This document shows, one piece after another, positions 19,699 to 30,846 of a DNA stretch of 32,000 nucleotides. The stretch lies in the NCBI GenBank assembly GCA_027460535.1, contig JAPZAR010000018.1, forward strand, positions 37,146 through 69,145, written 5' to 3'. The DNA is from Candidatus Methanoperedens sp. GTDB taxonomy: Archaea; Halobacteriota; Methanosarcinia; Methanosarcinales; Methanoperedenaceae. Below the pieces are notes generated by a model. It was not told where the DNA came from and did no database searches. It saw only the letters and a program-made list of their open reading frames with translations. Within the stretch, counting starts at the first letter, position 1. Every line of letters begins with the position of its first letter. The position numbers and the translations under genes were made by a program.

Positions 19699-20715
19699 TC
19701 ATGCCTCCGTGCTTTCGCGGATCAAGCTTCCAAGCAGTGTATCCACCCCGATTTTTGAATGTACTCCTATTTGCATGGTGGGTGCCTCAGTAATCAGATA
19801 ATAATATGTGTGAGCCGGTTTTTCAAGATTGATGATGTTCCTTATGACGCGCCTCCTCTTTTCCAGTATCTCCCGACTCGCTGTGGGCAGCTCGATATAT
19901 ACCTGGAAATAATAGGGGCGTCCTTCCCGTATCGCTGTATTCGTTCCGATCGTGGAACTGACGCCTATCTGTAATGTCTCCAGGAACTCATTTATTGATA
20001 TCTTGACATCTTCGCCCACATAGATCCGGATGAACTTTCGCAGTCCGTCAAGCGTTCCTCGCCTCTGGTACAGCGGGATTATCTTCGCAATAAGATCGCG
20101 CTTTTTCGCAGCGTTATTCTCATTCCATTCATCCTCTTCTCTCGGAACAAGGGCCATCCAGCCTGCAAGCCAGGGAAGGAACTCAAGAGGCATATTAAGA
20201 GGTTCGAAATAGATATGGATCTGGTCAATTATTTCCTCTATACCTTTTCTTTGAGTTACTTCATAAGGGAACGCTTCTACCAGAAGCATCATGTTCAGGC
20301 GGATGAGGTCATTACCGACCGGATTTTTTTCAAGAAGCTCTGCGGTTTCAGGAGATAATTTTATCCTCTGGAAGCGGTTTTTTTCATATATCGAATTTCC
20401 AAGGAGCAGGTTCTTGAATTCTTCATTCAGGGCTTTTTGAAGGGCTTCTGACGGCTGACTTGCATTCATGAACTCATCCAGAATCCGCCTGTTCTCTTGT
20501 GAAAATCTATCCTTAATGAAAACGGACAGGGGATTATTAGCATCAAGCAATTTGTACGCCAGACCAGCCGGATCTTTGATCTCCACGCGGAACAGTGAGT
20601 ATTTTGAAAGGATGTTCTCAAATACTTTCAGGAACCTTTCAAGAAAGCCATCTTTTTCTATCTGATAGATGGCAGGCAAATACCGAAGATAATTTCTGTC
20701 GTTATTGTCATTCAT
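19699..20715 (-). CDS. Baseplate wedge protein, P2 gpI-like / phage-tail-protein (TIGR02242-like) family
   Basis: YLRYLPAIYQ near the N-terminus and FLPWLAGWMAL...W...KRDLIAKIIPLYQRRGTLDGLRKFIRIYVG, the characteristic gpI-type motifs. The start overlaps the upstream stop by 8 nt. Confidence 0.7.
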   Translation of the reverse strand: MNDNNDRNYLRYLPAIYQIEKDGFLERFLKVFENILSKYSLFRVEIKDPAGLAYKLLDANNPLSVFIKDRFSQENRRILDEFMNASQPSEALQKALNEEFKNLLLGNSIYEKNRFQRIKLSPETAELLEKNPVGNDLIRLNMMLLVEAFPYEVTQRKGIEEIIDQIHIYFEPLNMPLEFLPWLAGWMALVPREEDEWNENNAAKKRDLIAKIIPLYQRRGTLDGLRKFIRIYVGEDVKISINEFLETLQIGVSSTIGTNTAIREGRPYYFQVYIELPTASREILEKRRRVIRNIINLEKPAHTYYYLITEAPTMQIGVHSKIGVDTLLGSLIRESTEA

Positions 20716-22567
20716 ATTTCACCGTTTCTATGTCGAATTTCTCCAATGCGATCAGCTGGTGCTTCTCGATCGCAAGTGTCGAAGCATTTTCAACATCGTT
20801 TATCCAGATTTTAGCGACATAGTCTACGCCGTTGATATTTTCCAGCAGGTTGTACACTTCAGAGCGGTAGATATGCCTGCCCATGGGCCAGCCAGTTCCC
20901 TCCGGTCCGCCTGAGATCGGATTGAAATATTCTTTAATCCTTCTTTCAGCCTCAGATATCACTTCGGCTTGCTTAATATTTTCTTTAATGGCAAGCTGCA
21001 CTCTCAGCTTCACATTTGCATAAACAGGACTCACCACATGCACACGTGTCGTGATCAATCTCCTCGCATCCAGATATGCTTTGATCTCTTCCAGCAACAG
21101 ATCTGAAGGTTTTCCCTCTTCTTTGCAATATCTGGAAATCTCGTATATATTTAGAATACTATTTTCTTTTATAGCATTAAGCGCAAAGGTGCAACCATCA
21201 TCGATTTTCAGGTTCACAATGGTTTTCGTATCATTAAGTTTTAGAGAAAGAGTTTTTTCTTCAGTAGATACATTTATTGTCCTACCATTATCGATTTTTT
21301 CAATTTTTGCTATTTTTGCCAAATCAATACCATATTTCTGTTCCAGAAATTCTGCGAGTTTCCCATTATCGTTTCCCGGGATTTCATCCCATCTGAACAA
21401 ATATGAATCTTCTACTCCGCGTGGAATAATGATCACAGAAACATGTCCTGGAAGCTCCTCATTTACCCCATATTCTTCAATTCCCTTGCTGTATAATAGT
21501 TTCCGGTTGGTCATGCAGACAGCCCTTCCCGGAGGGTCTTTTTGCAGCAGGATTTTCATACAATCCTGTGCTCTTTTTTTATAATCTTCTGACGTGATGG
21601 CCCTGTACATGGATTCCATGAATTCAACGGGAGCCTGTTTGATTTCCGAGATGCTCTTCTTTTTTCCATCATTGATTTCGACCAAGAAATTGAGAAGATT
21701 TTTATAAGCTCCGTCCAGATCAGGCATATTATATATGTTCAATCCTCCATTTTCTTTTATGGAATGCAGGTAGCGCACCTTACAGCCATTGATATTGAGA
21801 TTTCCTTTTCCCTCAATTTCATCCACTTTTATTTCTATCCACTTTTTGCCTGAGGAAATATTGAGAGTCTTAATTGAAGGATTATATACGTTAAGTTTGT
21901 CTTCTCCTTCCATCAAAACGAATTCATCGGTTCTACCATCATCGGTTATCAGCCTTACCTTCTTTTCCTCTTTTTTAAGTCCAAGAGAGACAAATTTATC
22001 TCCTGAAGATAGTTTTATGGTTTCATCATATGTGTCATCATGATAATTTTTAACTATTATTGATTTTTCCACCCAATCAATACCAAATCTCATTTTTAAA
22101 AATGATGTGAGTATTTTGTCATCGTTTCCTGGTACATCGTTCCAGGAAAAAAAATATGATTGATCGTGCTTTATGATCTTCGCATTATCATAATTTGTTA
22201 CCCAATCTAAACCGAGTTCGGTCTTCAGGAAATTCCGTAATCTGATCTCACCATCCGGTTTAAAATCATTCCAGTCAAATAAATACGTGCTTTCAAGTAT
22301 TTTCTCGAGATCGTCTTTATTCTGTGTTCCTGCGATGAGCTTCAGGAAGTTGGTATAGGATTCTACAGTGACCTGGTTCATCCTGTACATTACCATTTCG
22401 CTGAGCCATGCGAAAAGTTCAAGGAGCGTTATTCCAGGATCTGATGGATTGTGGTTTGTCCAGTCCCTGTCATAATTAAGGATAAGCGATCGCGCCTCTT
22501 TCATCAGGTCATCGAAACGTCTGTCATCCAGATTAGGTATTGGTAAATTCGATATAGGTACGGACAT
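20708..22567 (-). CDS. Baseplate J (gp6/gpJ)-like protein carrying three copies of an inserted WDEIPG-type repeat module
   Basis: N-terminal SDPGITLLELFAWLSEMVMYRMNQV and C-terminal RLITTRVHVVSP...GWPMGRHIYRSEVYNLLENINGVDYV match the baseplate-J pattern. Three internal modules start at YLFDWNDF, YFFSWNDVPGNDD and YLFRWDEIPGNDNG. Confidence 0.8.
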   Translation of the reverse strand: MSVPISNLPIPNLDDRRFDDLMKEARSLILNYDRDWTNHNPSDPGITLLELFAWLSEMVMYRMNQVTVESYTNFLKLIAGTQNKDDLEKILESTYLFDWNDFKPDGEIRLRNFLKTELGLDWVTNYDNAKIIKHDQSYFFSWNDVPGNDDKILTSFLKMRFGIDWVEKSIIVKNYHDDTYDETIKLSSGDKFVSLGLKKEEKKVRLITDDGRTDEFVLMEGEDKLNVYNPSIKTLNISSGKKWIEIKVDEIEGKGNLNINGCKVRYLHSIKENGGLNIYNMPDLDGAYKNLLNFLVEINDGKKKSISEIKQAPVEFMESMYRAITSEDYKKRAQDCMKILLQKDPPGRAVCMTNRKLLYSKGIEEYGVNEELPGHVSVIIIPRGVEDSYLFRWDEIPGNDNGKLAEFLEQKYGIDLAKIAKIEKIDNGRTINVSTEEKTLSLKLNDTKTIVNLKIDDGCTFALNAIKENSILNIYEISRYCKEEGKPSDLLLEEIKAYLDARRLITTRVHVVSPVYANVKLRVQLAIKENIKQAEVISEAERRIKEYFNPISGGPEGTGWPMGRHIYRSEVYNLLENINGVDYVAKIWINDVENASTLAIEKHQLIALEKFDIETVKYE

Positions 22568-22588
22568 GTGTTGCCTCGAAAGAAAAAA

Positions 22589-25500
22589 TCAGCGTTTAGA
22601 CAATTCAGCTCCAAAACACCATCTGCAGTAATCGTATACATTGGTCATATCAAGATCATCATAATTTCTGATGAACTTTCTATGCCCAAGTCTTATATCA
22701 GGAAGATGGCAGTTCTTCTTCCAGTTATTCAATTTATGGACCTCCCGGGTGTTTGTATTAATAAGATAAGGGAATTCAGGAAGTTTTCCGTTATGTACCA
22801 GATTATATATTTCATCGATTTTGACATCGGGTAATCCCTCCTCCTCCTCACTCTTATTTATCACATGTGTACCGGAATAAACAAGATAGTTATCATCTAT
22901 GAAAATGGTTTCAACCTTATCACTTATTTCTTTTATCTGTGAAGAATCAATCTTAGTTGGATCATCCCTGAGCCCGAGGAACAATTTATCACTTATCTCA
23001 AGTGGCGCTACCTTGAGATTAATGATGTCGCTATTCGCAGGCACACCTTCGGTAATGAATGACTTAATTCTCTTATCAAATGTTTCCACGACGCTCCAAG
23101 GAGGGAATCCAGTTTCAGATCGTACGGATTCACATTCAAGGATGTCACCCTTAATATTATGAGACACGGAACTAACAACAAGAAGTTTCCTGTTTTCGCC
23201 ATCTCTGAGGATAATATTGTCTCCTTCTTTAAAACCCACTACAGTAAGAGTATCAGTTCCTTCAAGTGGAAGTCGTTCAGCCAGAGAGAATATTGCTCTG
23301 TCATAGATTTTCGTTTTGTCCTTTGCAACCAATTCATCGGTCCTGATGTTATCGATTGTGAGGATCAGCCTTGTTGGATCATCATCAAATCTGATCGAAA
23401 CCGTGTTATTGACGATCTTATTGTAAGTGTATATGTTTAGCTTATTATTCTCGACCTTCGCCTCGAATTTATCGGTCCTGTGGTCAGTTGAGATCGAAAG
23501 GTCTGCTTTGGTTTTTGTAGCGTCGAGCCTGATCAGAATATAGTTTTGATTCAAAGGTGGCCATACAAAAGGACCTTTGATTTTCAGGGTTATGCCATTG
23601 TCAATTTTTCTAACTATCGAAAAAACTTGATCTAACCAGTCCAAACCAAATTCTTCTCTTAGATATGTAATAAGTTTATATTTTTCTTTTCCCGGTACTT
23701 CCTCAGTATCGGCAACCTCTTCCCAGCTGAACAAATATTTATTATATATGTGATTATATGTGTACACATATATGACATTCTTGGTTTTTTCAATCGTTTC
23801 TCCCTTCTCAAAGTCAATGCCAAAATTCTGTGTCAGATAAGCTTTCAAATTTTTTGAATCTTTTCCCGGAATTTCATCCCAGTCAAATAGGAATTTCTTA
23901 CCTATCGACACAATACTGCGCTCTGGATAAACAACCGATGGAGTTATTTCATTGATTTTCAATTTATAAATCTGTATCGAAGCATTAAGATACAGCTGAT
24001 CCACATAGTCCACACCATCCGTATTCTTGATGACTTTATAAACTTCCGATATATAAACATCCCTTCCGAAATCCCGTCCTTTATTGTCTGTACCCCCGTG
24101 CAGCGGGTGAAAGAACTCATTCAGTCTTTTAATGATCCTGCCTTCAATGGTCTTTGCCTCGGGGATCGAAGTGAACTGGACAGAAGCTACCACTCCCACC
24201 TTGATATAACCCGGACCTATCATATTGATCTGGGAACGGTCTATGAGATGGGTCGATGTCTTTTTTTCAATATCATCTTTAATGCTATCTATTAATTCCT
24301 GGGTCGGAAGAGGTTTGTGATCGTCGCTTTCCGGGACTATGATCACCGTGACCCAGCCGGATTTTGTCCTCTGGGTGGGATCTTTGACTGGCAGGCATTT
24401 TGCTTTTGCTACTTTTGGGGATGCCCTGACCAGCCACTCATAGTCCTCTAAAGTGACTGCTCTTTCATGGTGTTTGATAGTCTGAGGTCCTCTTTCTTCA
24501 GCACTTTCCAGGGTCTCCTTATCCCATCCGCCATCTGCATCCGCGTGATTCGTGACTGACTTGACAAATGGAAAAGCGGTCTTTAGTTTTGTTATGGAGT
24601 ATGCCCTGGCATTATTTCCATCATTTCCCCCTCCATACCGATAGCTGCACACGATATTATTTTTTCCAGCTGGAGGGATCATCCCTCTTACTCCGTCGCC
24701 AAAGGTTATTGTCCCATTAATCCTGTCTATAATATAGTGCCTGCTATGGGGTCCAGAAGAGAAGAAATGGCTTACCTCATGCCATCGAACCCGGTAACCT
24801 GTGATGTTGCCTGCATCATCCTTAAGATCTTTGACTGCTGCCTTATCGTTTTTTTCTTCAGAAATTATGAGCTTTCTTTCCTCTTGTGTGAGTGACAGTT
24901 CATTCACGCACACTCTTTGACCGCTAAGGACAGGTGAATGAGAAAATTTGATGACCTGATTCTTTTGCCCGTTACTTCCACCGATCTTCTCATCTCTAAC
25001 TGTAACCAGGTTGCTTGCCCATACCGTGTTAGTGTGCACGCTTCGCAGTTTTGGCAACCTATCATATCTTCCCTTATCGATACGGGCCCGTATCCAGTAA
25101 TACTCTTTCTCTTTCGCATCGTTCTCTTCCTCCCCCTTCTTTTCCTCAAAACAATACCTCTTATTGATATCGGAAGGAGCAGGGAATTGGATAATATCCT
25201 TTCTCGTCAGGTTCTCTGTTTTATCTTCAACGCTCAGGAGGGACCAGTTTTTCCCATTCCAGTATTCCCATGCCAGAACAGGAGGATTATCTGAAAGTGA
25301 GAGACTGATGGTGCTGCCATCCGAACTGAAGTCATGGATTAGTTTTTCTTCCCAGATGATTGTTTGATTATCAATCCTTTTAATGATCTTTTTCTCGATT
25401 TCACCTGAAGGATTGCGAAATTCCACAAAGTCCCCGATATACAGACTGGAAGCATCTTTCAAGGCGATATTAGTGGCTTCACGTCCCGGTCCTTTGTTAT

Positions 25501-27649
25501 CAAACAACAAAGGAACAGCAGGTTTGAACACATTATCGGACAGGGCAAAGAACAGAGTAACCGGGAGTTTGGCGATGTCCTGGTCAAAGGCAAGGTAAAA
25601 GGCAGGTTCTTTATCCTCTATTGGCTGGAATGGGGGAAAAGGATATTTTTTGCTATTCAACACATATCTCTTTTCGTTGACAGCAAATTCACTGGTTTGA
25701 ATCTCGGTTCCTGTCATGTAAACCTTTTTCATCTTGTCATCAAGAATGAGGGAAAGAGTGTTCTTCCCGTCAGAGATACTGATGGTTTCCTTTTCTGTTG
25801 CTATTCCGGGTATTTTCCGGATTATTGCCTCTCTTATCCAGTTCACATCGAAACCCCAGATGAGAGATTCAATAAGCTGGGCATTATTTCCCGGTACTTC
25901 ATCCCAGTTAAATAAACAGTACGTTTGGTTCCTGTAGGCAAAGTCGTTGTACGTCAGGATAGATAGTGGGATCTCACCTGTAGTATAATCCAGGGTCAAT
26001 TTGCTTATGCATGGCGGTTTATAAGTCGGGGGTTTGTATATCCATCCATAATTGAATTTGAAAGTCCTTCCACTAATGGCTGGATCAAAGGCAATATTAA
26101 CAGTGAGTGAATCTATTGCATCAACATAAACGACCTTTCTTGTTTGAGCAGGTTCATCTTTAGTAGGATCAGCAGTAATAGAATCACCAATTCTGAGTTC
26201 ATTTAAAAATTTTGTTCCAGTACCTTCCACATTCGTTTTATTTTCGCTGCTTGTAATCGTTCCAGTTCCTGAAATATCAATTCCACCGCCGGTTTCATAT
26301 ACAGTATCTTTTCCATAATTTCCCGAAATAATCCGAAACCGTATCCAGTAATTCTCTATTCCATTCTCTTCTTTCAATTCGATTTTAGGGCATCTGAAGG
26401 TTATATTTCCAGTTATGGTAAAGGCTAGAGTTGGATCCCCAGATACCACTCCATTTTGCACTGTCTTATTCAATTTCTGGATTTGTATCCATCCTGTTCC
26501 ATCCCAGAATTCCAGGCTAAGACTTATAGAAGTTGTATCAGGTAATACTATTTCCGGCGAAAGCGTAATTCCAATAGTTATGTTAGCGCCTTCTTTAGAA
26601 AAGACCTCTTTTGAGCCAATATAGAAAGTGTCGTTGAATTTGGGTCGTTCTCCAAAAGGATAAAAATCTTTGGTCAGATCAATGGGAACGCTGTTAAAAA
26701 GAGCTGCATCCGGTAATTGAGATGGGGCTGATGTTCCACCTATTGAAGCGGTGATTGATTTGATCTCTGGAAGGTTCCCTTCTGGTGCTGAAGTCATTAA
26801 CTCAGCGAATATCCAGCGGGTTTTCCAGGATTTTTGCTGGCCCTTTACTTTCTCAAATCCCGTAATTTCTTTTTCTGAAATTCCGGCAACAGGTTCAAAA
26901 GTAATGCTCCCGCTCTTCAGAAGATATGCAACATCGTCGTTGGTAGTTCTGACAACATTTAGAGGCTTGGGGGATAGAGTTTCATCAAAGTAATACCATT
27001 TCACTTCCCATTCCTGCGGTATTTTCGGGAGGATGCCAGATCGCAGATCAATTTCTGTCGTAAGGGTAATGGTCTTTTTCTCCTCGAAAGTGAAAAGCTT
27101 GCTGTTGCCGAGGTACAATCTGTGAGGAACACTATCTTTCCCTCTGAAGACCTCCACTTCTTCCTTTGGGTCTTTCAACAGGATTTTGCTATGATCTGTC
27201 CATTTTTCATCATCAGGAGACAAACTAACAGCCCTTGTCAGTTTTGGCTGGATGATAGTGATGTCGCTCTCTGTCTCAAAAACCAGTGAAGGGTGTTCCC
27301 TGGTCTGGAGCGTGGCAGCCTGCGTGCCTGCCCTGATAAATCCCTCCTTTTTATCGCCTTTAGCCATCGTAAAAGTCAGCGGCGCTCTTGCTACTCTCGG
27401 AGGAGACAGGCGTGTGCCCACCATGTTCATGAAGGTAAGGAAATTCTTGTCAGGGACTTTATTCAGCCGCTGTATGATGATCTCCATCATCCTTGAAAAT
27501 ATCTGAATAAGCGCATCCGCGCTCCTGTCAGATCGGATCTGGTCAATATTCATCCAATCTTTATTGCAGTAATTAAGAGCAAGTTCCCTGACCTGCTCCA
27601 CTATCTTCTGTTGATCCCGGTAGTCTAGCTTTGGAGGCGCAGCAGACAT
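22589..27649 (-). CDS. Giant baseplate assembly protein (Afp11-position; TIGR02243/baseplate-J-like) with inserted repeat modules and a C-terminal extension of about 470 aa
   Basis: It follows gp25 with a 1-nt TGATG overlap (ATG at 27649; the ORF track starts 3 nt earlier at a TTG). Carries the baseplate-J C-terminal pattern (GWVTVIIVP...GRDFGRDVYISEVYKVIKNTDGVDYV). Three WDEIPG-type modules are present. The terminal motif is VHK...C...C..C. Confidence 0.8.
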   Translation of the reverse strand: MSAAPPKLDYRDQQKIVEQVRELALNYCNKDWMNIDQIRSDRSADALIQIFSRMMEIIIQRLNKVPDKNFLTFMNMVGTRLSPPRVARAPLTFTMAKGDKKEGFIRAGTQAATLQTREHPSLVFETESDITIIQPKLTRAVSLSPDDEKWTDHSKILLKDPKEEVEVFRGKDSVPHRLYLGNSKLFTFEEKKTITLTTEIDLRSGILPKIPQEWEVKWYYFDETLSPKPLNVVRTTNDDVAYLLKSGSITFEPVAGISEKEITGFEKVKGQQKSWKTRWIFAELMTSAPEGNLPEIKSITASIGGTSAPSQLPDAALFNSVPIDLTKDFYPFGERPKFNDTFYIGSKEVFSKEGANITIGITLSPEIVLPDTTSISLSLEFWDGTGWIQIQKLNKTVQNGVVSGDPTLAFTITGNITFRCPKIELKEENGIENYWIRFRIISGNYGKDTVYETGGGIDISGTGTITSSENKTNVEGTGTKFLNELRIGDSITADPTKDEPAQTRKVVYVDAIDSLTVNIAFDPAISGRTFKFNYGWIYKPPTYKPPCISKLTLDYTTGEIPLSILTYNDFAYRNQTYCLFNWDEVPGNNAQLIESLIWGFDVNWIREAIIRKIPGIATEKETISISDGKNTLSLILDDKMKKVYMTGTEIQTSEFAVNEKRYVLNSKKYPFPPFQPIEDKEPAFYLAFDQDIAKLPVTLFFALSDNVFKPAVPLLFDNKGPGREATNIALKDASSLYIGDFVEFRNPSGEIEKKIIKRIDNQTIIWEEKLIHDFSSDGSTISLSLSDNPPVLAWEYWNGKNWSLLSVEDKTENLTRKDIIQFPAPSDINKRYCFEEKKGEEENDAKEKEYYWIRARIDKGRYDRLPKLRSVHTNTVWASNLVTVRDEKIGGSNGQKNQVIKFSHSPVLSGQRVCVNELSLTQEERKLIISEEKNDKAAVKDLKDDAGNITGYRVRWHEVSHFFSSGPHSRHYIIDRINGTITFGDGVRGMIPPAGKNNIVCSYRYGGGNDGNNARAYSITKLKTAFPFVKSVTNHADADGGWDKETLESAEERGPQTIKHHERAVTLEDYEWLVRASPKVAKAKCLPVKDPTQRTKSGWVTVIIVPESDDHKPLPTQELIDSIKDDIEKKTSTHLIDRSQINMIGPGYIKVGVVASVQFTSIPEAKTIEGRIIKRLNEFFHPLHGGTDNKGRDFGRDVYISEVYKVIKNTDGVDYVDQLYLNASIQIYKLKINEITPSVVYPERSIVSIGKKFLFDWDEIPGKDSKNLKAYLTQNFGIDFEKGETIEKTKNVIYVYTYNHIYNKYLFSWEEVADTEEVPGKEKYKLITYLREEFGLDWLDQVFSIVRKIDNGITLKIKGPFVWPPLNQNYILIRLDATKTKADLSISTDHRTDKFEAKVENNKLNIYTYNKIVNNTVSIRFDDDPTRLILTIDNIRTDELVAKDKTKIYDRAIFSLAERLPLEGTDTLTVVGFKEGDNIILRDGENRKLLVVSSVSHNIKGDILECESVRSETGFPPWSVVETFDKRIKSFITEGVPANSDIINLKVAPLEISDKLFLGLRDDPTKIDSSQIKEISDKVETIFIDDNYLVYSGTHVINKSEEEEGLPDVKIDEIYNLVHNGKLPEFPYLINTNTREVHKLNNWKKNCHLPDIRLGHRKFIRNYDDLDMTNVYDYCRWCFGAELSKR

Positions 27650-28059
27650 CAAATACCGCCCCGCTCAAGATAGAAAGGATATACGAGGTTGTCTTTTGTA
27701 TTCGATGTTTTGATTATATATTCTATATTGACTAGAAGTTTATTTCCTTCTTCCTCATCAGCAGCAATATCCATATCAGTCACTTCTATCCTCGGCTCCC
27801 ATTTCAGCAGTGATTCTCGTATATATGATTCTATAAGGGTCGCTGTGGTCGTGTTATTCAGAGCAAAAACAAGCCTGTTGAGGTCGCAGCCGAAATCCGG
27901 TCTCATGATTCTTTCACCCTTTGAAGTGCCAAGAATGATCATTATCGACTCCTTGATAGAATCTTCACCCTCTGAATATGCGATCTTTCCATCCCTTACA
28001 GAAACGGGCTTATCAGGTTGATATTTCCATCCTCTCCCCAGGAAATCCGGCTCTGCCAT
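27649..28059 (-). CDS. gp25/GPW-like baseplate wedge protein
   Basis: FLGRGWKYQP...IKESIMIILGTSKGERIMRPDFGCDLNRLVF...IRESLLKWEPRIEV is the canonical GPW/gp25 signature. Confidence 0.9.
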   Translation of the reverse strand: MAEPDFLGRGWKYQPDKPVSVRDGKIAYSEGEDSIKESIMIILGTSKGERIMRPDFGCDLNRLVFALNNTTTATLIESYIRESLLKWEPRIEVTDMDIAADEEEGNKLLVNIEYIIKTSNTKDNLVYPFYLERGGI

Positions 28060-28455
28060 CTATCCTCCTATCATAACTGTCCCGACCGCCATCACAGTGC
28101 CCACAGGCATGTCTGACGGGTCGTTGCACGTCATTGCCATATCCCCGTTCCTGGCAGCCATTTTTCCGTTTATCTTTACGGTGGCGCTCCCCAGCTTTAT
28201 GGTAGCCTTGTTCGCCGGGGGCTTCTGGAATGGACCGCCCTGCGGGATGTGGGGCGGCATGTTTGAAGCTGTTGAATCCACTGTAGCTGCGGCCATCCCC
28301 ATTATCTTCACATCAGAGCTAAGGTTCCCGTCGATCATACCTGTGAATGGATGCGGCAGCGGGGTCGGTACCGGACCTCCCGGTGTCGGGATCATTATAA
28401 TATGTATATCCGTCGCCATTACCTGGTCTCCCTGTTTAGCCGCTGGCTGTCCCAT
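28060..28455 (-). CDS. PAAR-like spike-tip protein
   Basis: 131 aa with GQPAAKQGD at the N-terminus and KINGKMAARNGDMAMTCND near the C-terminus (paired PAAR-type motifs). It is directly adjacent to the spike gene. Confidence 0.85.
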   Translation of the reverse strand: MGQPAAKQGDQVMATDIHIIMIPTPGGPVPTPLPHPFTGMIDGNLSSDVKIMGMAAATVDSTASNMPPHIPQGGPFQKPPANKATIKLGSATVKINGKMAARNGDMAMTCNDPSDMPVGTVMAVGTVMIGG

Positions 28456-28456
28456 A

Positions 28457-29140
28457 TTAGTTGATGTTCACCGTTGCCCCTTTTACGTTCATGCTCCCTG
28501 AAGCTTTAAGATCCATACTTGAAGTAGCCTCGATCTTGACGGAAGCTTTTGCTTTGACCTCGAAGTCATTAGCTTCTATCTTTGCAGAAGCTTTTGTTTT
28601 GACCTCGAAGTCATTAGCCTCAATAGCCACCTTCCCGTTCGGGGCCGAAATCTCGATATCCATATCTGATTTAATGGATATCTTGTTATCACTTGTACTG
28701 ATGACTATCATGTTTTTCTCTGATTTGTCAATTATCTCTATCTTCTCTCCCCCATTAGTATCATCAAACCGTATTATGTGCCCGCTCTTTGATTTGATCA
28801 TCCTGATGCTGTTCTCTCCATCCTCATTGGTGAGTATCGGCGTATCCACACCGTTCCACAGCGAACCTATTATGTACGGGATATTTATGTCCCCGTATTC
28901 AAAAGCCACAAGCACCTCATCATCAACTTCTGGTAGGAAAAACGCACCTCTCTCGCTCCCCGCCATGAAAGTAAGCACCCTTGCCCAGTTGGATTCATCC
29001 TCTCCGCTCAGGCGGGGGATTTTAACTTTTACCCTTCCGAGCATATCAGGGTCTTTGTTATCGATAACGATTCCTGTAACGACCCCGTATATTTTCGATT
29101 CAGATCTCCTTCTCTGCTCCAGTAGGCCGGTAATGCTCAT
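28457..29140 (-). CDS. gp5/gpV-like spike protein (VgrG C-terminal half: OB-fold plus beta-helix)
   Basis: YGVVTGIVIDNKDPDMLGRVKVKIPRLSGEDESNWARVLTFMAGSERGAFFLPEVDDEVLVAFEYGDINIPYIIGSLWNG is the gp5 OB-fold signature. The C-terminus has a repetitive beta-helix (IEANDFEVKxKASxK x2). Confidence 0.9.
   Translation of the reverse strand: MSITGLLEQRRRSESKIYGVVTGIVIDNKDPDMLGRVKVKIPRLSGEDESNWARVLTFMAGSERGAFFLPEVDDEVLVAFEYGDINIPYIIGSLWNGVDTPILTNEDGENSIRMIKSKSGHIIRFDDTNGGEKIEIIDKSEKNMIVISTSDNKISIKSDMDIEISAPNGKVAIEANDFEVKTKASAKIEANDFEVKAKASVKIEATSSMDLKASGSMNVKGATVNIN
28542..28631 (-). repeat. 45-bp direct tandem duplication inside the spike beta-helix
   Basis: GAAGCTTTTG(C/T)TTTGACCTCGAAGTCATTAGC... 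occurs at 28542 and again at 28587. It encodes two 15-aa beta-helix rungs. Confidence 0.8.
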
Positions 29141-30186
29141 ATCCCTGTTCTCCTCACCTTGAATGTCGTTGTATACACTCCCTCAAATAAGGAATGAACC
29201 GATGACACCACGTAATATATGCCGCTAAGCTTTTCTCCTATTCCCGTTATCTCTATGGTCTTTCCAGCTCTTATTCCTGGATTTCCGACGCATTCTCCTT
29301 CCCCTGTCAGGAATTCCTTAAGTATGAGGTTATATTTTGCCTTTGCAATATTCTCAGCATCTGTTGCATCGATTATAAGATCATCGACAACAGAGATAGA
29401 AGAAGCGATGAATGCATTTTCAGATATTTCAAAGCCGGATTTATCACCAGCCATTTTTGTCGTTTCACTCCCTGCCGAAACCGTCGAGGCGATCTCTACT
29501 TTATCATTGATGCTCCAGCCTCTGACCTCAACCTCGCTCCCTTCAGTAAGCGTGTTTATCTGAACTCCAAAGCTTTGGAGATCCATTCCGTATTCGAGGG
29601 TCAACTCTGGCGACCTATCCTCCTGCGATTTCTTAAAAACGAATGTCCCTTCATCAACACGCATCTCATAGCCTATCCGTTTTGAACGTTCGAGTAGAAA
29701 TTCATAGTTGCTCTGGTTATTCTGGAATATGTACGGGTGAATAGTACCTGTATCCTCGACATCGGGGGATAGGCTGATATCTGAAGCAATGGATGAAGCG
29801 ATGTCGCTGTCTTTCATGTCTTTGAACGAACGCCTCATCGTTCCAAATCTTAACCTATGCAGTTTGTCATAACCTCTTATCTCTAGGAGGCAATTATCTC
29901 CGAAATTAAAATCGAGTGATGTGATCTCTCCGGTGATCATGTCAATCAGGCTATCAATGCCCATAGAGACTTTCACCTCGTCCCCGATCTTAAAAGTCTC
30001 AAGGTCAACTCCTCTCCATGCGCCGTTCAAATTGTCAACAGTGTCGACCTTGATAATAAACATCGCCGGCAGATTCTGTTCATCTTCGACCGTAATCCCG
30101 ATAATTGCGGTAATAATATCATTCGGGAGCTCATTGCCGTTTATGAGCAGCTTGAAACTTGCAAGGTTTATTGTGTCATCCATCAA
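29137..30186 (-). CDS. Late-control gpD / gp27-like baseplate hub protein (VgrG N-terminal half as a separate gene)
   Basis: 349 aa. FKLLINGNELPNDIITAIIGITVEDEQNLPAMFIIKV...FKIGDEVKVSMG...RSFKDMKDSDIASSIASD follows the gpD/VgrG N-terminal pattern. ATGA overlap with the spike gene. Confidence 0.8.
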   Translation of the reverse strand: MMDDTINLASFKLLINGNELPNDIITAIIGITVEDEQNLPAMFIIKVDTVDNLNGAWRGVDLETFKIGDEVKVSMGIDSLIDMITGEITSLDFNFGDNCLLEIRGYDKLHRLRFGTMRRSFKDMKDSDIASSIASDISLSPDVEDTGTIHPYIFQNNQSNYEFLLERSKRIGYEMRVDEGTFVFKKSQEDRSPELTLEYGMDLQSFGVQINTLTEGSEVEVRGWSINDKVEIASTVSAGSETTKMAGDKSGFEISENAFIASSISVVDDLIIDATDAENIAKAKYNLILKEFLTGEGECVGNPGIRAGKTIEITGIGEKLSGIYYVVSSVHSLFEGVYTTTFKVRRTGI

Positions 30187-30195
30187 ACAGGCTCC

Positions 30196-30846
30196 TTAGT
30201 CAGGAATTATCAATATCCTTCCTATGTCGTTAGATGTTGGGAATGCCAGAGGGTTATTGATGTCATTCTCCTCGGCTATCTTTCTCCATAGATTTACATT
30301 CTTGAGTGTACTTTGAGCTATAAGGTCAAGTCTATCTCCATTCTTGACTTTCCATATCTTCCTGCATGCATCGATGCCCATGTTCTTTTTATATTCTTCC
30401 GCAGTTACTGCTGCTTTCAACGTAATGGTCAGTTCGGCTCTTACAGGCTTTCCATCAGGAAGAAACAGTGTAAATTTTTGATCAAGTTTGTGGAGCCTCC
30501 CTTTATATGCGAAACCGCCCCATACAAATTTGCACATGGGAAGTATTTTTCTTTCCGGTCCCTCGATCGCGGGTATGAGAAGTTTGGCTATCTTGTTCGT
30601 CAGCGTCCTGACATCAGATTTTTGTTCATATGTATCAAAAAGCAGCTTGACCGTAAAATCCTTCAGGGACACCTTATAAAAAGATGGATTTCCCACATTC
30701 GAACCTTTAGGTGCCGAACCTTCTCCAGCAGTTGACGGAGATGTCGGCATTTCCGCTTCCGAAGAGATTGTATATTCGTTTGGATTGAACTTTACTTCTA
30801 TCGGATCTCCACCTTCAACTTCTATTATAGCTTTTGTAGGCGTCAT
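30196..30846 (-). CDS. Tube-fold protein with C-terminal LysM domain (P2 gpX / Pvc7-position)
   Basis: The N-terminal segment KFNPNEYTIS...FVWGGFAYKGRL matches the contractile-tail tube-protein N-terminal pattern as I recall it. The C-terminus, VKNGDRLDLIAQSTLKNVNLWRKIAEENDINNPLAFP...GRILIIP, is a LysM pattern. Confidence 0.75.
   Translation of the reverse strand: MTPTKAIIEVEGGDPIEVKFNPNEYTISSEAEMPTSPSTAGEGSAPKGSNVGNPSFYKVSLKDFTVKLLFDTYEQKSDVRTLTNKIAKLLIPAIEGPERKILPMCKFVWGGFAYKGRLHKLDQKFTLFLPDGKPVRAELTITLKAAVTAEEYKKNMGIDACRKIWKVKNGDRLDLIAQSTLKNVNLWRKIAEENDINNPLAFPTSNDIGRILIIPD

Follow-up and report, generated by a model that had tools for sequence, protein, structure and literature searches.

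A translated, MITE-like repeat family as the probable source of six units in two baseplate wedge proteins of Candidatus Methanoperedens

Rickettsia palindromic elements (RPEs) are selfish repeats inserted in frame into many open reading frames (ORFs), and are thought to be compatible with the folding of their host proteins (PMC10969869). The present analysis concerns 32,000 nucleotides of Candidatus Methanoperedens sp. (GCA_027460535.1, contig JAPZAR010000018.1, positions 37,146 to 69,145, forward strand; hereafter the window), in which the two baseplate wedge genes of an extracellular injection system of the contractile type (eCIS; CIS for contractile injection systems in general) possess six copies of a unit of about 88 amino acids (aa). 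These units are most probably copies of a translated mobile element family spread through the genomes of Ca. [quoted passage not shown] Its behaviour is closest to that of RPEs and other in-frame MITEs.

RPEs and the Methanoperedens element are both short, non-autonomous repeats in many unrelated ORFs, where the same single frame is always translated into an additional peptide. With an archaeal host, the resemblance concerns behaviour alone, presumably without a relationship in sequence. RPEs have about 150 bp and alphaproteobacterial hosts, whereas the present element resides in archaea, has 262 bp, encodes a confidently predicted alpha/beta domain, and displays clear target duplications, self-nesting and a distribution over more than 2,000 protein clusters; furthermore, no intergenic copies were seen and its RNA or DNA palindromic structure is weak. 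With prokaryotic MITEs (Coxiella QMITE, ERIC, Correia, Sulfolobus SM elements) it shares the small size, terminal inverted repeats (TIRs), a fixed-length duplication, the presence in multiple copies, the lack of a transposase ORF, and insertion polymorphism between relatives. Typical MITEs are mostly intergenic and non-coding or incidentally coding; the present element, in contrast, is essentially confined to ORFs, its length and duplication add up to a number divisible by three, purifying selection acts on its product, and no cognate insertion sequence was found in the approximately 370 kb of loci scanned.

In the translated ORFs of the two wedge proteins, here named A and B, the motif F.W[NDE][DE] occurs at A97, A140, A391, B581, B1256 and B1308. 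These are exactly the six sites at which an earlier inspection made without database searches (the sequence-only reading) had listed copies of an unrecognised module common to both wedge genes. A profile hidden Markov model (HMM), built from the units and their homologues and used to delimit the segments in A and B, supports the recurring unit at a length of about 88 aa. It detects eight significant segments, i.e. four complete units, two heads and two tails (Table 1), which assemble into six units of about 88 aa each. The earlier count of six is therefore retained, and the anatomy is revised in that both head-only copies and the two surplus tails are halves of two older units that have been split. 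The order in each protein is head, complete unit, tail, as formed by an older unit with a younger one nested inside. No further copies are present elsewhere in the window according to six-frame HMM and nhmmer searches. Units constitute about 45% of A and about 17% of B, so that the size inflation suggested previously applies to A and not to B.

The model of a single unit (AlphaFold2, AF2, with 15 homologues) is a confident compact domain of one strand, one helix and six strands, with a predicted local distance difference test (pLDDT) value of 89.4. In the model of full-length A, whose alignment also yielded the model of the nested pair, both members of that pair are predicted to be folded (pLDDT 76-91). 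The elements begin with strand 1, the helix and strand 2; the entire inner unit comes next, and strands 3-7 close the series. Values for individual units are 83-91 (A2) and 63-81 (A3), and five strands are predicted for the tail half of the outer unit of A (77-85).

Comparison with orthologous baseplate proteins reveals filled and empty sites with clean edges in every instance compared. Unit A3 is unique to the window and lacks in all three closest A orthologues, which are 76-77% identical. The empty site reads GTA GAA AAT TCC AAG TAT TGT, and the filled site GTA [GAA GAT TCA] TAT TTG ... ATA TAC [GAG ATT TCC] AGA TAT TGC, a gain of 270 nt. Unit A2 is present in the orthologues P0032 and P0163, both of which contain additional units at other positions. 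P0164 lacks A2, and the outer unit of A runs through there without a break. The flanks of A2, GATCAATCA and AATCCTTCA, agree in 6 of 9 positions. Unit B3, again unique to the window, is missing from the orthologues of loci L044 and L042, in which the outer unit of B is intact, and its flanks TATAATAAA and (ACT) TACAATAAG match at 7 of 9 positions. The uninterrupted outer units of P0164 (for A) and of L044 and L042 (for B) prove the nested split of the older units. Unit B1 is shared with the L044 orthologue, and the outer unit of A is kept in all archaeal orthologues of A.

The A orthologue P0175 possesses, at its second unit site, only a short remnant (KVSLEDLPKGETGNGWNKGGNGK) where close relatives have a full unit, which by its appearance shows that units decay raggedly, by internal deletion. 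Since loss in P0175 leaves such a messy remnant, the clean empty sites most plausibly represent the state before insertion. Directly upstream of B3 (window 23741-23770, minus strand), five codons, CAC ATA TAT AAT AAA (H-I-Y-N-K), look similar to a unit's 3' end together with its flank, with approximately eight extra codons here compared to the orthologues; they may be the footprint of an earlier element, or the donor may have been a tandem array.

The core of the element comprises 262 bp (261-262), consisting of one G and 87 codons from TAT TTG TTT AGC to CTA AAC ATA TAC, and conservation profiles place its ends at (G)TAT TTG and ATA TAC. Its TIRs of 14 bp, GTATTTGTTTAGCT and AGCTAAACATATAC, match in the consensus at 13 of 14 positions and are located symmetrically at the ends (element-end sequence GTATTTGTTTAGC). 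Among null sequences such an inverted repeat was obtained in 15 of 5000 synonymous recodings (p=0.003) and in 2 of 5000 codon shuffles (p=0.0004). In the scanned loci, 128 of 134 TIR-like 14-mers (at most 2 mismatches) are situated at unit ends, and orphan TIR-like sites are at chance level.

The target duplication was assessed in 53 non-redundant units, in which the 9 nt before codon Y2 and the 9 nt after codon Y88 show 4.42 matches, compared with 2.98 +/- 0.17 for shuffled pairings; none of 2000 shuffles reached the observed value. This excess is limited to a duplication length of 9 and to positions -9 to -1. It is found equally in the 44 isolated units (z=7.2, reached by 0 of 5000 shuffles), so that tandem duplication does not explain the signal. 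The left copy of the flank is always followed by G, hence the element has 262 bp and the duplication 8 bp, or 9 bp if the leading G is counted. Together they amount to 270 bp, which is exactly 90 codons, so that every insertion leaves the downstream frame intact.

A recent burst is documented by a young subfamily recovered with a DNA-pattern scan of metagenome contigs (Table 1), with five copies in five contexts that are 91-94% identical over exactly the element. Duplications of this subfamily match at 7 or 8 of 9 positions, with the left and right flanks GAACATTT(G) and GAACATTT(A), CTTTTCGT(G) and CTTTTCGT(T), and, in locus L055, CTTAATCT(G) and CTTAATCT(A). The young copy of L052 resides in a hydrophobic, membrane-like segment instead of a polar loop.

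Similarity at the DNA level between non-orthologous copies (78-83%) begins and ends at the unit edges. Only one of the six frames is open, the remaining five hold 1 to 14 stops. Codon choice is conserved position by position over 61 copies (e.g. TTG for Leu3, CTC for Leu17, CTT for Leu57, and AGC for Ser5 versus TCT for Ser47), which argues for common descent of the DNA and not for convergence of an old domain. The family consequently combines several properties of MITEs, i.e. small size without a transposase gene, TIRs, a fixed-length duplication, and multiple copies with insertion polymorphism; the absence of copies from the non-coding DNA scanned is its main departure from the typical case. 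Every copy seen in the scanned loci, including those retrieved purely by DNA pattern, is in frame within an ORF of at least 148 aa or within an ORF cut by a contig end. A structured RNA or palindromic element was considered as well and rejected, with an RNA fold (z=-2.06) barely better than that of shuffled sequence.

An exhaustive profile search with the unit matched 2,184 representative protein clusters at E<=1e-3 and 1,611 at E<=1e-10, many of the matched proteins with 2 to 12 units. Matches of a genome scan belong almost exclusively to Methanoperedens or Methanoperedenaceae, a taxonomic picture biased towards near-consensus copies because strict peptides from three close sequences were used. 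In 63 host proteins, 67 different Pfam families are represented, among them Baseplate_J (9 hosts), Tail_P2_I (3 hosts), pentapeptide, KAP_NTPase, NB-ARC, TPR, GAF, pYEATS, HEAT, RAMP and S-layer families. The head-full-tail pattern is repeated in many unrelated proteins, and one case of double nesting displays the order head-head-full-tail-tail.

Host domains are interrupted by the units. In protein P0017 positions 1-163 of the KAP_NTPase profile are stretched over residues 63-346, because a nested unit pair sits within the P-loop domain. Excision of the units in silico increases the KAP score from 35.3 to 39.3 bits, the GAF score from 84.7 to 97.5 bits (with three instead of two matching stretches), and the Baseplate_J score from 32.8 to 35.5 bits, where the match then crosses the A3 junction. 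Small stand-alone unit proteins also exist, in ordinary archaeal neighbourhoods (thermosome, prefoldin). Three proteins (P0006, P0008 and P0012, from loci L001 and L020) consist of a hydrophobic N-terminal segment, similar by eye to a transmembrane helix, followed by one unit, and are candidates for study if the unit has a homotypic docking role.

A syntenic eCIS is present in a metagenome-assembled genome (MAG) labelled Firmicutes/Bacillota (GCA_023512195.1, L045:10001-13291). Its small Baseplate_J protein of 1096 aa contains about ten strongly diverged units at the same two sites as in A. Either the eCIS has been transferred beyond Methanoperedens or the contig is mis-binned; the array possibly indicates that the domain arose in, or was co-opted by, the baseplate.

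Paralogous units differ at a median pairwise dN (non-synonymous substitutions per site) of 0.40 and dS (synonymous substitutions per site) of 1.14, with dN/dS 0.33. The young copies, compared with their own consensus, have 21 synonymous and 36 non-synonymous changes (pN/pS, the corresponding ratio of polymorphisms, 0.39). Host flanks of A against the three closest orthologues yield dN 0.10, dS 0.70 and a ratio of 0.14, and dN/dS reaches about 0.5 in orthologous A2 and about 0.6-0.7 between A3 and its nearest paralogues. The unit peptide is under purifying selection that is real and relaxed: as judged from these ratios it appears constrained, at least for its fold, but much less than the host. 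The dS of A3 to its nearest paralogues, which are located in unrelated genes, is 0.45-0.49 and lies below the host orthologue dS of 0.70, which favours a gain of A3 over a triple loss. The greatest divergence is that of unit B1, whose dS is at least 1.1 in each comparison with another copy. The outer units of A and B and B1 rank as old copies, A2 as a copy of intermediate age, and A3 and B3 as lineage-specific ones.

No match to the unit at E<=1 is present in the local copy of Pfam-A. NCBIfam provides LIC10124_lipo only, a partial match far under the cut-off (E 2e-4 to 0.04), and the newer Pfam entry PF27311 (AF_1994_N) is faintly matched by two hosts in precomputed records, with none recorded for other multi-unit proteins; both matches are set aside because other multi-unit proteins lack them. 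The weak similarity to the Leptospira LIC10124 lipoprotein profile (NF047815, window 21140-21406) extends to two regions of that profile, and could represent a distant fold relative or chance. A PDB-wide sequence search with the unit profile found no match, including the solved wedge proteins 9gtp, 7aeb and 7b5h. Foldseek searches of the unit model against PDB and BFVD returned nothing significant (best E 0.05, template modelling score <0.47) and no Ig-like fold. Neither Pfam nor NCBIfam contains a transposase match for the 87-aa product, and viral sequences of IMG/VR contain no unit copy. The suggestion of the sequence-only reading that the unit is not part of known families has thus been borne out in these databases, as has its placement outside the canonical gp6/Baseplate_J fold, orthologues of about 360 aa being devoid of the unit. 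In the literature searched on Methanoperedens with MITEs or in-frame repeats no description of the unit was found; papers on ANME archaea and their jumbo extrachromosomal elements mention eCIS loci and not the module, and those found for AF1994 contain Giardia primer names only.

The following course of events would account for these features. A transposase acting in trans would move the 262-bp element, and the 8-bp duplication would render each insertion frame-neutral downstream. Selection would remove gene insertions unless they are in sense orientation, in phase 0 and in a tolerant loop. The unit of about 87 aa would fold autonomously; its first strand (YLFSW) is followed by a helix (L..FL) and by a meander of six strands that closes with KLNIY. 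The inverted repeats would encode its first and last strands. Successful self-nesting suggests that the two ends of a unit are close together. Surface loops and turns would accommodate the domain; where such a turn belongs to an older copy, the nested head-full-tail pattern results. In the wedge proteins, peripheral loops situated between the N-terminal helices and the C-terminal Baseplate_J core would be permissive, and six copies would have accumulated there.

Several observations weigh against an origin from such an element. The inverted repeat is short and based on the consensus, with 6-13 of 14 matches in the 17 copies that have gap-free terminal 36 nt. No transposase, autonomous copy or orphan TIR pair with matching ends was found in the scanned loci. 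Intergenic, antisense or frameshifted copies are likewise lacking among about 100 copies in these loci (six-frame HMM, nhmmer and DNA-pattern scan). A frame-blind element should leave neutral intergenic copies, and purifying selection alone may thus not explain the bias towards ORFs; at a dS of about 1, neutral copies of old age would escape detection, and the young ones should be visible. Purifying selection on the peptide implies that the domain is not junk. Finally, the retention of old units in all archaeal orthologues, and the L045 array at the same two sites, are compatible with an acquired function.

The old copies leave room for a mixed origin, which we regard as possible though doubtful. 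Here the unit would have started as a repeat domain of the small CIS baseplate protein, in which the arrays have the greatest age and divergence; transposon ends would subsequently have enclosed a single copy, which was then mobilised in Methanoperedens. On this reading, the outer units of A and B and B1 would serve as functional arms at the periphery, and A2, A3 and B3 would be later hitch-hikers. The conservation of the outer units of A in all archaeal orthologues, in place of a small beta domain of unit-free orthologues, is consistent with this course, as are the high divergence of B1 (dS >=1.1) and the roughly ten diverged units at the same two sites of the L045 eCIS. Diverged arrays can, however, equally be read as old insertions in permissive loops, the position of L045 outside the archaea depends on the taxonomic label of the MAG, and the old copies have no readable flanks.

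The confinement of all copies seen to ORFs could also indicate a true protein-domain transposon, i.e. an element with a folded product whose in-frame coding insertion is biased beyond purifying selection, the domain being beneficial, a proteome-wide tag, or an aid to its own propagation. We consider this unlikely. As a tag, the domain would link CIS baseplates, KAP/STAND NTPases and other conflict proteins by homotypic association.

An ordinary functional domain, either a homotypic adaptor or tag for CIS and NTPase conflict systems or an adhesin or decoration, spread by duplication and recombination shuffling under positive selection, is improbable. It would be in keeping with the in-frame location of all copies, the dN/dS of 0.33-0.39, the confidently predicted fold, the frequency of the unit in Baseplate_J (9/63) and Tail_P2_I (3/63) proteins, and further hosts typical of conflict systems (KAP, NB-ARC, TPR, pentapeptide, pYEATS, RAMP). 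The stand-alone versions, some by eye with an N-terminal segment like a membrane anchor, and the long diverged arrays of another eCIS fit as well. Domain shuffling, however, predicts neither a fixed-length target duplication of 8-9 bp nor TIRs, nor DNA identity of 91-94% over exactly 261-262 bp in unrelated genes, nor insertion within catalytic and sensor domains with self-nesting up to two levels; adaptor domains are normally found at termini or in linkers. An intein-like or otherwise removed insertion, leaving mature baseplate proteins without units, has its sole parallel in the fact that inteins are likewise in-frame selfish insertions in conserved proteins, and is effectively refuted by the sequence, for the unit starts with YLF and ends with NIY, without N-terminal Cys/Ser or C-terminal His-Asn plus Cys/Ser/Thr, its 87 aa are shorter than known inteins, no intein or Hint family of Pfam is matched, it is not site-specific to one host gene, and its RNA folds barely better than shuffled sequence (z=-2.06).

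Returning to the mobile MITE-like family, the baseplate units would mainly be tolerated peripheral passengers or decorations and not a receptor binder. The sequence-only reading had proposed a target-recognition or anchoring domain of the baseplate. This proposal does not agree with the 2,184 protein clusters containing the unit, with its interruption of cytoplasmic enzymes and sensors (KAP P-loop, GAF), or with the transposable-element hallmarks of its DNA and a constraint much weaker than that of the host. An identity of the unit as a receptor-binding or tail-fibre domain is likewise not supported, since PDB and BFVD provide no fold match and most hosts are unrelated to CIS. The locus, moreover, already encodes a tail-fibre-like protein of 1152 aa with repetitive GNVGIGT...VKA..F.GDGS.LTG motifs and a match to a Chlorovirus glycoprotein repeat, in which profile and DNA scans of the window found no units, and which is the likelier receptor binder. 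Host range and this dedicated fibre together make a receptor-binding role of the units unlikely. A decorative or spacer role of old copies is possible, as is a secondary, acquired role of units at the baseplate periphery. Promiscuous Ig-like, FN3 and BIG decoration domains occur in phage and CIS structural proteins. Like the unit, they are extra, independently folding, beta-rich peripheral domains of tail and baseplate proteins, variable between relatives; the unit differs from them in its fold, in hosts beyond virion-like proteins and in its transposon-like spread.

Domains are commonly inserted into the middle of proteins in the course of evolution, by a mechanism that is obscure for intron-less prokaryotes. 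The element described here, small and transposon-like, appears to insert domains at scale, with over 2,000 protein families of a single archaeal lineage affected as well as the element itself. To our knowledge such an element has not been reported in archaea, and the literature searched on Methanoperedens is likewise silent. It would be an archaeal counterpart of the RPEs, distinguished by the folding of its product and by a far wider range of hosts; if the element were a true protein-domain transposon, it would provide a transposition-driven route to domain insertion in prokaryotic proteins. The insertions map, in a natural way, which sites of archaeal proteins are permissive, among them peripheral loops of the CIS wedge usable for the display of binders. 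Until a model of the unit is included, annotation pipelines will give hundreds of Methanoperedens proteins wrong sizes and wrong splits, and in CIS caution is advised against taking modules of this kind for receptor-binding domains.

Both host proteins belong to the Baseplate_J / gp6-Cis11 wedge family by their profile and structure matches. Protein A matches Pfam Baseplate_J (PF04865, cut-off 21.1) with 32.8 bits and protein B with 48.7 bits; TIGR02243 (cut-off 155.8) is matched by A with 141.7 bits, under the cut-off, and by B with 240.3 bits, over it. Among PDB sequences the closest match of A is 9gtp_1K (E 2e-28), and its AF2 model retrieves 9gtp_1G of the Streptomyces coelicolor CIS baseplate in Foldseek (E 1e-10). 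Protein B matches 9gtp_1K (E 5e-56), 7aeb_G and 7b5h_AH. The nearest solved relative of both is therefore the S. coelicolor protein 9gtp, followed by those of AlgoCIS (7aeb) and the Anabaena thylakoid CIS, tCIS (7b5h). The N-terminal helices and the C-terminal Baseplate_J core of these solved proteins are conserved in A and B; 9gtp differs in that one protein of 652 aa forms 12 chains, as opposed to two paralogues of 619 and 1687 aa here. A partial protein 100% identical to A is annotated as Ca. Methanoperedens sp.

Table 1. Units, host genes and further components of the eCIS locus in the window, and the young subfamily outside it.
Feature	Window position	Strand	Residues (aa)	Evidence and remarks
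Host gene A, gp6/Cis11-like baseplate wedge protein, 619 aa	20708..22567	-		Baseplate_J, TIGR02243 and PDB matches
Unit A3, full	21135..21412	-	388-476	HMM E 8e-40; lineage-specific insertion
Unit A3, element core	~21143-21404	-		duplicated target on both sides
Outer unit of A, 3' half (strands 3-7)	21728..21880	-	230-280	HMM positions 42-89, E 9e-5
Unit A2, complete	21881..22159	-	137-229	HMM E 4e-34; nested in outer unit of A
Outer unit of A, 5' half (strand 1, helix, strand 2)	22157..22288	-	94-137	HMM positions 2-39, E 1e-5
Host gene B, gp6/Cis11-like baseplate wedge protein, 1687 aa	22589..27652	-		Baseplate_J, TIGR02243 and PDB matches
Outer unit of B, 3' half	23300..23419	-	1412-1451	HMM positions 50-83, E 4e-4
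Unit B3, complete	23426..23740	-	1305-1409	HMM E 4e-29; nested in outer unit of B
Outer unit of B, 5' half	23747..23896	-	1253-1302	HMM positions 2-40, E 4e-11
Unit B1, full	25646..25921	-	578-669	HMM E 1e-29; old diverged copy
Tail-fibre-like protein, 1152 aa	16222..19680	-		see text
Tail_P2_I	19699-20715			same eCIS locus
gp25	27649-28059			same eCIS locus
PAAR	28060-28455			same eCIS locus
VgrG OB domain	28457-29140			same eCIS locus
gpD/YQBQ-like hub	29137-30186			same eCIS locus
CIS_tube	30196-30846			same eCIS locus
Young subfamily, loci L049, L050, L052, L053, L056				metagenome contigs LGVF01, LGVD01, Ga0209013

The remaining part of the window contains a low-GC island at approximately 12000-16200 (0.34-0.36, compared with 0.42-0.48 elsewhere) with a 577-aa M48-peptidase-like ORF and a 154-aa ORF. 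The island is followed by about 1.3 kb (14.9-16.2 kb) that possess short ORFs only and separate the fibre gene from the putative effector region, and a TPR protein is encoded at 11519-12502. Two eCIS_core (DUF4157) proteins at 9338-11230 and 6224-8215 (minus strand), one of them fused with an OmpA domain, are probably payload or effectors of the injection system. The last 60 aa or so of protein B (window 22589-22780, minus strand) form a Cys/His-rich tail (...NNWKKNCHLPDIRLGHRKF...YDYCRWCFGAELSKR), strongly conserved in 4 of 4 orthologues, which resembles a small zinc-binding module attached to the wedge protein.

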